From Escherichia coli (GTDB lineage: Bacteria > Pseudomonadota > Gammaproteobacteria > Enterobacterales > Enterobacteriaceae), in NCBI RefSeq assembly GCF_041886205.1, contig NZ_CP169029.1: a stretch of 64,000 nucleotides of DNA; one strand, written 5' to 3'. Under the pieces are notes generated by a model. The model made no database searches and was not told where the DNA came from. It saw nothing but the letters and a program-made list of their open reading frames with translations. Position numbers and translations under genes: made by a program. Positions 3,284 through 58,407 of the stretch are shown here, one piece after another. Within the stretch, counting starts at the first letter, position 1. Each line of letters starts with the position of its first letter.

Positions 3284-3359
3284 TGGCTCCTCTGACTGGA
3301 CTCGAACCAGTGACATACGGATTAACAGTCCGCCGTTCTACCGACTGAACTACAGAGGA
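3284..3359 (-). tRNA. asnT: tRNA-Asn
   Basis: Reverse complement reads TCCTCTGTAGTTCAGTCGGTAGAACGGCGGACTGTTAATCCGTATGTCACTGGTTCGAGTCCAGTCAGAGGAGCCA, 76 nt, canonical E. coli tRNA-Asn. Confidence 0.95.
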
Positions 3360-4350: not shown

Positions 4351-4440
4351 GGAGAGATGCCGGAGCGGCTGAACGGACCGGTCTCGAAAACCGGAGTAGG
4401 GGCAACTCTACCGGGGGTTCAAATCCCCCTCTCTCCGCCA
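4351..4440 (+). tRNA. serU: tRNA-Ser
   Basis: GGAGAGATGCCGGAGCGGCTGAACGGACCGGTCTCGAAAACCGGAGTAGGGGCAACTCTACCGGGGGTTCAAATCCCCCTCTCTCCGCCA, long variable arm, 3' CCA. Confidence 0.95.
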
Positions 4441-13881: not shown

Positions 13882-14192
13882 TATGTATTCCCTTGTGATT
13901 ATAATCTTCATGAATATATCAATAAGTGCCGTTATCCAAAAAAAAGCACATTTGGATACTATTCTATGAAGTTCATTTTATTTTAAGGATTACATGTAAC
14001 AAATGTATTTAAAAGATTTCAAAATGTTTCTAATCTATTTAATATAATTCAGGATTATGAATTCTAAATATAAATATTCATGAAAATTATAAATGTATAT
14101 CAATATGTTATGAGTTGAGCGGAAGCATAGGGGGTATCAATGATTGTTGCGCCAAACGGCTGGTGTGATCACGCGCACATTAATGAAGGCAT

Positions 14193-14285
14193 AAAAAAAA
14201 GCCGGCATCATGCCGGCCCAAAAAATATAAACAAGACGATAAAAGGCTAATAACGGAAGCATCATGACACAGAATAATAAAAAGG
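14193..14285 (-). ncRNA. rseX: Candidate small RNA (RseX-like) ending in a Rho-independent terminator
   Basis: Minus strand: 7-bp stem GCCGGCA/TGCCGGC (14201-14217) followed by an 8-nt T-run. Upstream segment CGUUAUUAGCCUU is complementary (with G-U pairs) to the ompC RBS region as recalled. Position between yedR and yedS matches where rseX is reported in K-12. 5' end not determined. Confidence 0.45.
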
Positions 14286-14447: not shown

Positions 14448-14813
14448 GTGGAAAAATGTGACTTTTATCACATAATAGTACTAAGTCTGAATTTTCCGGG
14501 TTATCTCAAAATGGAATACGGTTCGACAAAGATGGAAGAGAGACTCTCTCGCAGCCCTGGCGGCAAACTGGCTTTGTGGGCTTTCTATACATGGTGTGGC
14601 TATTTCGTCTGGGCAATGGCGCGTTACATCTGGGTGATGAGCCGGATCCCCGATGCCCCCGTGTCGGGATTTGAAAGCGATTTAGGTTCTACCGCGGGAA
14701 AGTGGTTAGGGGCACTGGTCGGCTTTTTATTTATGGCTCTGGTCGGGGCATTGTTAGGTAGCATTGCCTGGTACACTCGGCCTCGTCCCGCACGTAGCAG
14801 ACGCTATGAATAA
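14448..14813 (+). CDS. yedR: Small inner-membrane protein YedR (121 aa from GTG; alternative starts TTG 14430 or ATG 14511)
   Basis: ...MEYGSTKMEERLSRSPGGKLALWAFYTWCGYFVWAMARYIWV... two hydrophobic segments; start codon uncertain. Confidence 0.8.
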   Translation: MEKCDFYHIIVLSLNFPGYLKMEYGSTKMEERLSRSPGGKLALWAFYTWCGYFVWAMARYIWVMSRIPDAPVSGFESDLGSTAGKWLGALVGFLFMALVGALLGSIAWYTRPRPARSRRYE

Positions 14814-22618: not shown

Positions 22619-22705
22619 AACACATCAGATTTCCTGGTGTAACGAATTTTTTAAGTGCTTCTTGCTTAAGCAAGTTTCATCCCGACCCCCTCAGGGTCGG
22701 GATTT
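22619..22705 (+). ncRNA. dsrA: DsrA small regulatory RNA
   Basis: AACACATCAGATTTCCTGGTGTAACGAATTTTTTAAGTGCTTCTTGCTTAAGCAAGTTTCATCCCGACCCCCTCAGGGTCGGGATTT, matches DsrA including terminator stem-loop and T-run. Confidence 0.93.
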
Positions 22706-53798: not shown

Positions 53799-53874
<76 letters not shown>

Positions 53875-53927
53875 GTTTAAAAGACATCGGCGTAAGCGGA
53901 TGTCTGGCTGAAAGGCCTGAAGAATTT

Positions 53928-54001
53928 GGCGCGTTAACAAAGCGGTTATGTAGCGGATTGCAAATCCGTCTAGTCCGGTTCGACTCCGGAACGCGCCTCC
54001 A
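53928..54001 (+). tRNA. cysT: tRNA-Cys
   Basis: GGCGCGTTAACAAAGCGGTTATGTAGCGGATTGCAAATCCGTCTAGTCCGGTTCGACTCCGGAACGCGCCTCCA. Confidence 0.95.
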
Positions 54002-54013
54002 CTTTCTTCCCGA

Positions 54014-54100
54014 GCCCGGATGGTGGAATCGGTAGACACAAGGGATTTAAAATCCCTCGGCGTTCGCGCTGTGCGGGTTCAAGTCCCGCTCCGGGTACCA
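54014..54100 (+). tRNA. leuZ: tRNA-Leu
   Basis: GCCCGGATGGTGGAATCGGTAGACACAAGGGATTTAAAATCCCTCGGCGTTCGCGCTGTGCGGGTTCAAGTCCCGCTCCGGGTACCA. Confidence 0.95.
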
Positions 54101-57368: not shown

Positions 57369-57692
57369 TTAGAGAAAGACAGGGAAGGCGGAATGATGGC
57401 ACTGATATGACAAAGTGAATTCCGTATTCAAACATAAGGAACCCGCAAAAAGGCTACAGTTGCCTACTGGCTGACCAAAGGGGACCGCGTGGGTATAGCC
57501 TTCCTGCTGGCATGCGCGATCGGCGATCCCGCGACTGACATAACGATCGGTATGGGCATGCTGCAAAAAAGCCTGGTCATAAACTAACCGTACAATACCT
57601 GTTGCCGCGTCAACTTTGCTCACATGGGCTTGGCGAGTAACCGTACACCCCGCCAGCGTTATTAATGAAAGAGTCAGAATCAGAAGTCTCAT
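57369..57692 (-). CDS. yecR: Lipoprotein YecR (107 aa)
   Basis: MRLLILTLSLITLAGCTVTRQAHVSKVDAATGIVRL... lipobox LAGC. Confidence 0.88.
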   Translation of the reverse strand: MRLLILTLSLITLAGCTVTRQAHVSKVDAATGIVRLVYDQAFLQHAHTDRYVSRGIADRACQQEGYTHAVPFGQPVGNCSLFAGSLCLNTEFTLSYQCHHSAFPVFL

Positions 57693-57856
57693 GGTCCAGC
57701 CAGAAGAGTAAGAGAAAGCACTATTTTACGCGTTACAGTGCTGCGACAATGGCCGGAAAAGACGCCTGGCAGGCGCTATTTCTTGCCATCTGTAGGTGTC
57801 AGAAATAGGGGGGCTGTTTTTTGATTATCATTTTCATAACATTAAAGGGGTATTTA

Positions 57857-57872
57857 TGTGATTTGCATCACA
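57857..57872. promoter_or_regulatory. CRP-binding site upstream of azuC
   Basis: TGTGATTTGCATCACA, perfect TGTGA-N6-TCACA palindrome about 85 bp upstream of the azuC ATG. Confidence 0.55.
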
Positions 57873-57954
57873 TAAAGATTGATTTTTGTGATGGTTGTCA
57901 TATTATAAGCGCAAAGACAATAACACCTGTATAACAAATAGTCGGAGTGCCGCG

Positions 57955-58041
57955 ATGAAACTGCGCAAAATCCTGAAAAGTATGTTCAATAACTATTGCA
58001 AGACGTTCAAAGACGTACCGCCAGGCAATATGTTCCGATAA
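57955..58041 (+). CDS. azuC: Small protein AzuC (28 aa), coding part of the dual-function AzuCR/IsrB RNA
   Basis: ATG...TAA encodes MKLRKILKSMFNNYCKTFKDVPPGNMFR; below ORF-track size cut-off; followed by terminator. Confidence 0.85.
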   Translation: MKLRKILKSMFNNYCKTFKDVPPGNMFR

Positions 58042-58043
58042 CA

Positions 58044-58069
58044 AAAAACCTGCTCCGGCAGGTTTTTTT
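58044..58069 (+). terminator. Rho-independent terminator of azuC
   Basis: AAAAAACCTGCTCCGGCAGGTTTTTTT. Confidence 0.65.
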
Positions 58070-58155
58070 GTGTCCTGATGACGGTGGATGTGACTATCGC
58101 TGAAGATGTGAAGCCGCTACTATAACGGCTTTCAAAATGCTATCAGGAGTTTACG

Positions 58156-58407
58156 ATGTCCCAGCCGCTGAATGCCGATCAGGAACTGGTTTCTGATGTG
58201 GTTGCTTGCCAGTTGGTTATCAAACAAATTCTGGATGTTCTCGATGTAATCGCGCCCGTTGAAGTTCGTGAAAAAATGTCCAGTCAGCTGAAGAATATCG
58301 ACTTTACTAACCATCCCGCCGCCGCAGACCCGGTCACCATGCGGGCAATCCAAAAAGCCATCGCGCTTATTGAACTCAAGTTTACCCCACAGGGTGAATC
58401 CCATTAA
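58156..58407 (+). CDS. yecJ: Small protein YecJ (83 aa)
   Basis: [83 protein letters not shown]. Confidence 0.88.

Follow-up and report, generated by a model that had tools for sequence, protein, structure and literature searches.

The azuCR small-protein and small-RNA locus between yecR and yecJ of Escherichia coli and its two conserved CRP boxes

What is encoded in the short space between yecR and yecJ of Escherichia coli, and in which direction is it controlled? We considered this question for one stretch of E. coli DNA of 64,000 nt (hereafter the window), in which the original prediction had placed a 28-codon ORF, preceded by a CRP palindrome and followed by an intrinsic terminator, and had taken it to be the CRP-dependent azuCR (IsrB) locus. 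The predicted span, 57857-58069, begins where the palindrome begins and closes with the final T of the terminator. Our analysis indicates that this locus is almost certainly the E. coli azuCR (IsrB/IS092), which is already known and well studied; IS092 and IsrB are earlier names of the AzuCR RNA (PMC8915982).

The intergenic region that contains azuCR (57693-58155, 463 nt) is bordered by yecR on one side (57369-57692, minus strand) and by yecJ on the other (58156-58407, plus strand), so that the predicted position between these two genes is borne out, and the order yecR, azuCR, yecJ is the same as in K-12. When this region was aligned without gaps to K-12 MG1655, 459 of the 463 nt were the same, the four differences lying at 57835, 57866, 57940 and 58114. 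The K-12 annotation there consists of azuC (b4663, 1987873-1987959) and the azuR ncRNA (b4434, 1987843-1988001). From this annotation, the published start and the gap-free alignment, the azuCR RNA occupies 57913-58071 in the window, and from the translation, the identity to K-12 and an NCBIfam match, the azuC CDS (28 codons and TAA) occupies 57955-58041; these and all elements of the transcript and promoter described below are on the plus strand, while the CRP boxes are given without a strand. The ORF runs from the ATG at 57955 to the TAA at 58039-58041, as had been proposed, and its translation, MKLRKILKSMFNNYCKTFKDVPPGNMFR, is identical to K-12 AzuC at 28/28 residues. The comparison with annotated azuC, which had been named as the way to check the locus, thus gave a 100% identical peptide together with a match to the NCBIfam equivalog NF033642 at 75.9 bits (E = 1.3e-21, profile positions 1-26 of 26), the cut-off of this model being 30 bits. 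Of 5,426 complete E. coli genomes, 5,419 carry the intergenic region, which is annotated "azuC: stress response protein AzuC".

The window and K-12 therefore have the same AzuC peptide, promoter, pair of CRP boxes, terminator and neighbours. The two RNAs are one base apart, at 57940 in the 5' leader (A in the window, G in K-12); the spacer of the first CRP box has C in the window and T in K-12 at 57866, and the remaining two differences (57835 and 58114) fall in the flanks, so that the half-sites, the FnrS site, the Shine-Dalgarno sequence, the ORF and the terminator are all spared. No Pfam family was found for the AzuC peptide, and the search of the azuCR region against Rfam 15 returned no match at the gathering score; the sub-threshold Rfam matches (STnc370, rsmX, istR and RNAI) all overlap the terminator region and none of them names azuCR. 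It appears that Rfam has no model for the AzuCR RNA, and the missing match is no argument against membership in AzuCR/IsrB.

The AzuCR RNA forms a transcription unit by itself, short and discrete, with a predicted sigma-70 promoter, a predicted intrinsic terminator and a start taken from the literature. A promoter scan placed the -35 hexamer TTGATT at 57879-57884 and the -10 hexamer TATTAT at 57901-57906, which are separated by a spacer of 16 nt, match the sigma-70 hexamers at 9 of 12 positions and are 97% and 99% conserved across genera (identity to the window 0.97 and 0.99 among the 59 sequences compared). The K-12 transcription start is 1988001 (PMC8915982), which maps to the A at 57913, 7 nt past the -10 hexamer. 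The 3' end given by RefSeq maps to 58071 and yields an RNA of 159 nt, while the published length is 164 nt (PMC8915982), so that the position of the 3' end carries an uncertainty of about 5 nt. The terminator expected 3' of the ORF turned out to be a strong one: at 58043-58071, an A6 run, the hairpin CCUGC-UCCG-GCAGG and U7 (hairpin and U-run at 58049-58069, with the A6 run flanking them) fold at -16.0 kcal/mol against -5.5 ± 2.0 for shuffled sequences (z = -5.1; 0/200 shuffles as good), and in the 59 sequences its stem is invariant and its loop variable. A consensus terminator scan did not pick up this element, probably because pairing of the A-run with the U-run leaves no free tail. The sub-threshold STnc370 match (58037-58101, minus strand, 33.4 bits against a gathering score of 54) overlaps the same symmetric A6-stem-U7 element, at which termination both ways would be possible in principle. 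A weak terminator-like hairpin with a T-rich tail, CGCCTGGCAGGCG, was also seen on the plus strand at 57763-57775, upstream of the azuCR promoter; no plus-strand gene ends there, and it may be a chance match.

The ORF had been said to be missed by the ORF track, and this is indeed the case in the sense that the track lists it merely as the tail of a 48-aa ORF starting from TTG (57895-58041); since only this tail appears in the list, the usual length cut-offs would skip azuC. The 48-aa version itself was rejected, because the published start site at 57913 is downstream of that TTG, and an antisense 48-aa ORF on the minus strand (57898-58044) received no support. The ATG of azuC is preceded at 7 nt by the Shine-Dalgarno sequence GGAG (57944-57947), invariant or nearly so in the 59 sequences, and GTG replaces the ATG in some Enterobacter and Lelliottia. 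In most genera AzuC stops after codon 27 at a TGA, whereas in Escherichia this position is CGA or AGA (Arg28) and is followed by TAA (58036-58041 in the window); the Citrobacter amalonaticus locus L012 also reads Arg28 and stops at the next in-frame stop. The peptide has a net charge of +6, and its hydrophobic moment is 0.60 over residues 2-21, with about 1% of shuffles as high, and 0.53 over residues 1-20, against a shuffle mean of 0.24 and with 1% of shuffles reaching it; it is thus predicted to form a cationic amphipathic helix. AzuC of K-12 was described as amphipathic and associated with the membrane; it co-purified with GlpD and increased the dehydrogenase activity (PMC8915982). From the identical K-12 protein and the coding-type pattern of substitutions, we predict that AzuC of the window is likewise translated and membrane-associated and that it binds and stimulates GlpD.

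In addition to being translated, the AzuCR RNA of K-12 represses cadA and galE by pairing inside the ORF, and its translation and pairing interfere with each other (PMC8915982). Synthesis of AzuC is repressed by the sRNA FnrS, whose pairing site is located 25-31 nt upstream of the ORF (PMC8915982). In the window, the FnrS pairing site CACCUGU, which pairs with the FnrS 5' end GCAGGUG, is found at 57924-57930, i.e. 25-31 nt 5' of the ATG and matching the published position, and this block is conserved in most genera. A consensus structure computed from the 59 sequences holds only the invariant terminator and a small conserved hairpin in the ORF (58012-58034, codons 20-27), which we regard as tentative. 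This hairpin has 8 pairs, with 96.6-100% of the cells paired, and its sole covarying pair, 58017/58029, varies in 21 sequences (AU, CG, GC and UG) and corresponds to the third positions of Val21 and codon 25.

The palindrome upstream of the promoter, TGTGATTTGCATCACA at 57857-57872 (box 1), has zero mismatches to TGTGA-N6-TCACA, just as had been claimed, and is centred at -48.5. There is a second CRP box absent from the original prediction, TGTGATGGTTGTCATA at 57887-57902 (box 2), which has 1 mismatch, is centred at -18.5 and extends over the promoter spacer into the -10 hexamer, of which it covers the first two bases. The 64-kb window contains 2 perfect CRP matches against 0.06 expected, and 0/100 shuffles reached 2. 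Both boxes are present in 59/59 sequences, offset by exactly 30 bp every time, and the distance from box to ATG varies between 67 and 74 nt. The half-sites are 0.90 and 0.98 identical to the window in box 1 and 0.99 and 1.00 in box 2, as compared with 0.55 and 0.61 for the respective spacers and 0.30 for the 12 nt 5' of box 1; the bases G2, T3, G4, A5, T12, C13 and C15 of box 1 are invariant. Such conserved half-sites beside variable spacers form the pattern typical of a phylogenetic footprint left by two functional CRP sites. Direct CRP binding at the two boxes is predicted in the literature examined, in which we found no CRP footprint on boxes 1 and 2; occupancy changes were reported mainly upstream of the annotated CRP sites (PMC12266141).

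Several other RNA genes are present in the window. Rfam matches include DsrA (102.5 bits, 22619-22705), RseX (97.7 bits, 14194-14283, minus strand) and five tRNAs, at 3287-3359, at 4351-4437 and, for three of them, clustered at 53799-54097; this cluster corresponds to cysT-leuZ of K-12, presumably also with glyW, and in K-12 the 3'ETS-leuZ sRNA is annotated adjoining leuZ. Just one further perfect CRP consensus is present in the window, TGTGACTTTTATCACA at 14457-14472; the 5' end of the RseX sRNA gene is about 175 nt away from it, and a one-mismatch CRP box is found in the same region at 14164-14179.

Before the function of the locus is considered, it should be asked whether both of its products are real. 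An ORF of this length could be a chance open frame inside a non-coding sRNA, since such ORFs are common (the 3 kb surrounding azuC contain 52 of 20 aa or more), and the 28-codon ORF alone is thus uninformative. However, the azuC frame is open in 59/59 sequences, as compared with 2 and 18 in which the other frames are open, the identity by codon position (0.91 / 0.91 / 0.70) shows third-position wobble, and Pseudocitrobacter azuC has a 6-nt insertion after codon 2 that adds two codons in frame; the Shine-Dalgarno sequence and the start codon are conserved as well, and the NCBIfam equivalog matches. As the detection of the tagged protein, together with ribosome binding, has already refuted a chance frame in K-12 (PMC8915982), we give this explanation practically no credence. 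Conversely, the locus might be an mRNA of AzuC only, and the pairing of AzuR an overexpression effect without a natural role. Target regulation was in fact measured mostly with overexpressed RNA (PMC8915982), and in our own duplex scan, in which a 26-nt sliding window was compared with K-12 cadA and galE along with shuffled controls, the best duplexes were within the shuffled range: -24.2 kcal/mol with cadA -16 to +10 (ribosome binding site and start codon) and -19.2 kcal/mol with galE +19 to +44. Both fall on the same predicted AzuR pairing stretch, 58001-58026 (codons 16-24), which is the same in the window and in K-12. Because these energies are no better than those of shuffles, the sRNA function rests on the published compensatory mutations, which restored regulation for both cadA and galE; moreover, cadA-gfp is higher in an azuCR deletion strain, and the RNA binds Hfq and ProQ (PMC8915982). 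An mRNA-only locus also fits poorly with the terminator stem and part of the 5' leader being near-invariant across genera, and with the synonymous sites of azuC, which change about half as much as those of yecJ in each degeneracy class (two-fold, 0.23 vs 0.42; four-fold, 0.39 vs 0.65; six-fold, 0.31 vs 0.61; stratified permutation p = 0.002, for phylogenetically related sequences and yecJ as the single control gene). This comparison used the amino-acid-keeping codons of 57955-58041 and 58156-58404 in the same 56 species, and the constraint in azuC was strongest in codons 2-8 and 18-27. Such low synonymous variation is suggestive of selection on the RNA as well as on the protein, and we consider it unlikely that azuCR is an mRNA only.

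The remaining question is which regulator uses the palindrome and with what effect. Activating CRP sites are located near -41.5, or near -61.5, -71.5, -82.5 and -92.5 (class I/II). A perfect consensus box upstream of the -35 hexamer could be taken for a class I or class II site at which CRP activates the promoter, but box 1, at -48.5 from the start at 57913, is about half a helical turn off both -41.5 and -61.5, and the second conserved box, at -18.5, covers the spacer and the -10 hexamer, so that the class I/II geometry is lacking and a consensus box overlaps core promoter elements as in a CRP-repressed promoter. Activation is already contradicted by published data: in K-12, AzuC is raised in a crp deletion mutant and expression is higher on glucose than on glycerol (PMC8915982, citing Hemm et al. 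2010), and the AzuCR RNA is abundant only in exponential growth on glucose and low otherwise (PMC8915982). CRP thus represses the azuCR promoter and does not activate it, activation being extremely unlikely; of the predicted "CRP-dependent azuCR (IsrB)", the identity holds, while the published derepression and the box positions require "CRP-dependent" to be read as "CRP-repressed". CRP is not the only repressor reported. FNR, PhoP and NarP were described as further repressors of this promoter (PMC12266141, 2025), with FNR motifs at K-12 1988039-55 and 1988042-58, with derepression on mutating the FNR motif or deleting fnr, and with a citation of an earlier FNR ChIP-seq signal near the promoter (PMC12266141). 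In the window, the FNR motifs map to 57859-57875 and 57856-57872, i.e. to CRP box 1, and the reported NarP region to 57838-57855, in a poorly conserved stretch. On these grounds the palindrome might be mainly an FNR operator for anaerobic repression rather than a CRP site. CRP sites (GTGA...TCAC) are separated from FNR sites (TTGA...TCAA) by discriminating bases, and these, G 57858 and C 57871, are of the CRP type in 59/59 sequences. The core GTGAT-TTGC-ATCAC has 2 mismatches to TTGAT-N4-ATCAA, both at the discriminating positions, and across the 59 sequences box 1 never comes closer than 2 mismatches to this FNR consensus, whereas it is within 1 mismatch of the CRP consensus in 55/59. In addition, the motif mutation would also destroy CRP box 1, and the published mutant therefore cannot separate CRP from FNR. 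We thus regard a mainly FNR-specific operator as very unlikely; FNR may use this CRP-type site weakly, which is compatible with its being a CRP site.

How far does this arrangement extend beyond E. coli? In a survey anchored on YecJ, covering the best 80 of 224 relatives with one genome per species, an AzuC ORF was found upstream of yecJ in 58 of the 80 loci, belonging to 11 named genera: Escherichia, Citrobacter (amalonaticus/sedlakii group), Enterobacter, Lelliottia, Leclercia, Kosakonia, Silvania, Huaxiibacter, Pseudenterobacter, Pseudescherichia and Pseudocitrobacter. At the yecJ loci of Salmonella enterica subsp. arizonae/diarizonae, C. koseri, the C. freundii group and Buttiauxella we found neither azuC nor a remnant of it. 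In Escherichia sp. MOD1-EC7003 (L004:1734-2500), a natural deletion has removed yecR, the azuC promoter and the ORF, so that of azuCR only the terminator is left, between ftnA and yecJ. The neighbourhood also differs in other loci: a 212-aa ORF fills the space between yecR and yecJ in S. enterica subsp. arizonae (L013:1695-2333), and yecR and ftnA are missing upstream of yecJ in the C. freundii group and Buttiauxella.

These observations can be combined into one reading with three parts, which we put forward tentatively and, for the three parts taken jointly, as somewhat short of an even chance. Two CRP boxes 30 bp apart, a promoter, a 27-28-codon ORF and a terminator would form an old module of the Enterobacteriaceae that is not restricted to Escherichia, occurs in at least 11 genera and was lost several times, in Salmonella, the C. 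freundii group, C. koseri, Buttiauxella and one Escherichia lineage; selection at the RNA level would have kept the riboregulator role; and the palindrome would be an operator shared by CRP and FNR.

As to how the locus would work, the sigma-70 promoter (57879-57884 and 57901-57906) is expected to start an RNA of about 160 nt at 57913 that ends at the terminator (58043-58071) and has two roles, as the mRNA of AzuC and as the sRNA AzuR. AzuR would pair through its ORF-internal sequence with the cadA and galE mRNAs and repress them, and the translation of AzuC and the base pairing of AzuR would compete. When glucose is absent, cAMP-CRP would switch the promoter off. We infer a division of labour between the two boxes, with box 1 as a high-affinity anchor for CRP and box 2 as the site where RNA polymerase would be blocked, across the spacer and the -10 hexamer. 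Under anaerobiosis, pairing of FnrS at 57924-57930 would block translation of AzuC. In K-12 the basis is experimental and comprises the transcript, the translated protein, the interaction with GlpD and the pairings with cadA, galE and FnrS, with compensatory mutations (PMC8915982); our own basis in the window is sequence identity, the full set of sequence elements and their conservation.

Two other RNAs invite comparison. SgrS/SgrT of enteric bacteria is like AzuCR in that one short transcript serves as an sRNA and as the mRNA of a small protein in carbon metabolism, but SgrS keeps coding and pairing in different regions, whereas AzuCR pairs through part of its ORF and its two activities compete with each other; the sequences of the two are unrelated. 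Spot 42 (spf) with SpfP is, like AzuCR, a CRP-repressed dual-function sRNA of carbon metabolism with a very small protein; the repression by CRP is published (PMC8915982), and so is the very small protein SpfP (PMC8916003). The Spot 42 peptide acts on CRP itself, while AzuC acts on GlpD, and here too the sequences are unrelated.

azuCR is a textbook dual-function RNA, and the present results leave that picture as it is. The locus works as a positive control, in that a 28-codon gene, a regulator site and a terminator were recovered from raw sequence without tools. Of possible interest to specialists are the invariant 30-bp offset of the two CRP boxes and the CRP-type bases in a palindrome that has been assigned to FNR. 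If the three-part reading is true, selection at the RNA level on the synonymous sites of azuC would mean that the riboregulator role is also conserved, and the shared CRP/FNR operator would integrate carbon and oxygen signals at azuCR.
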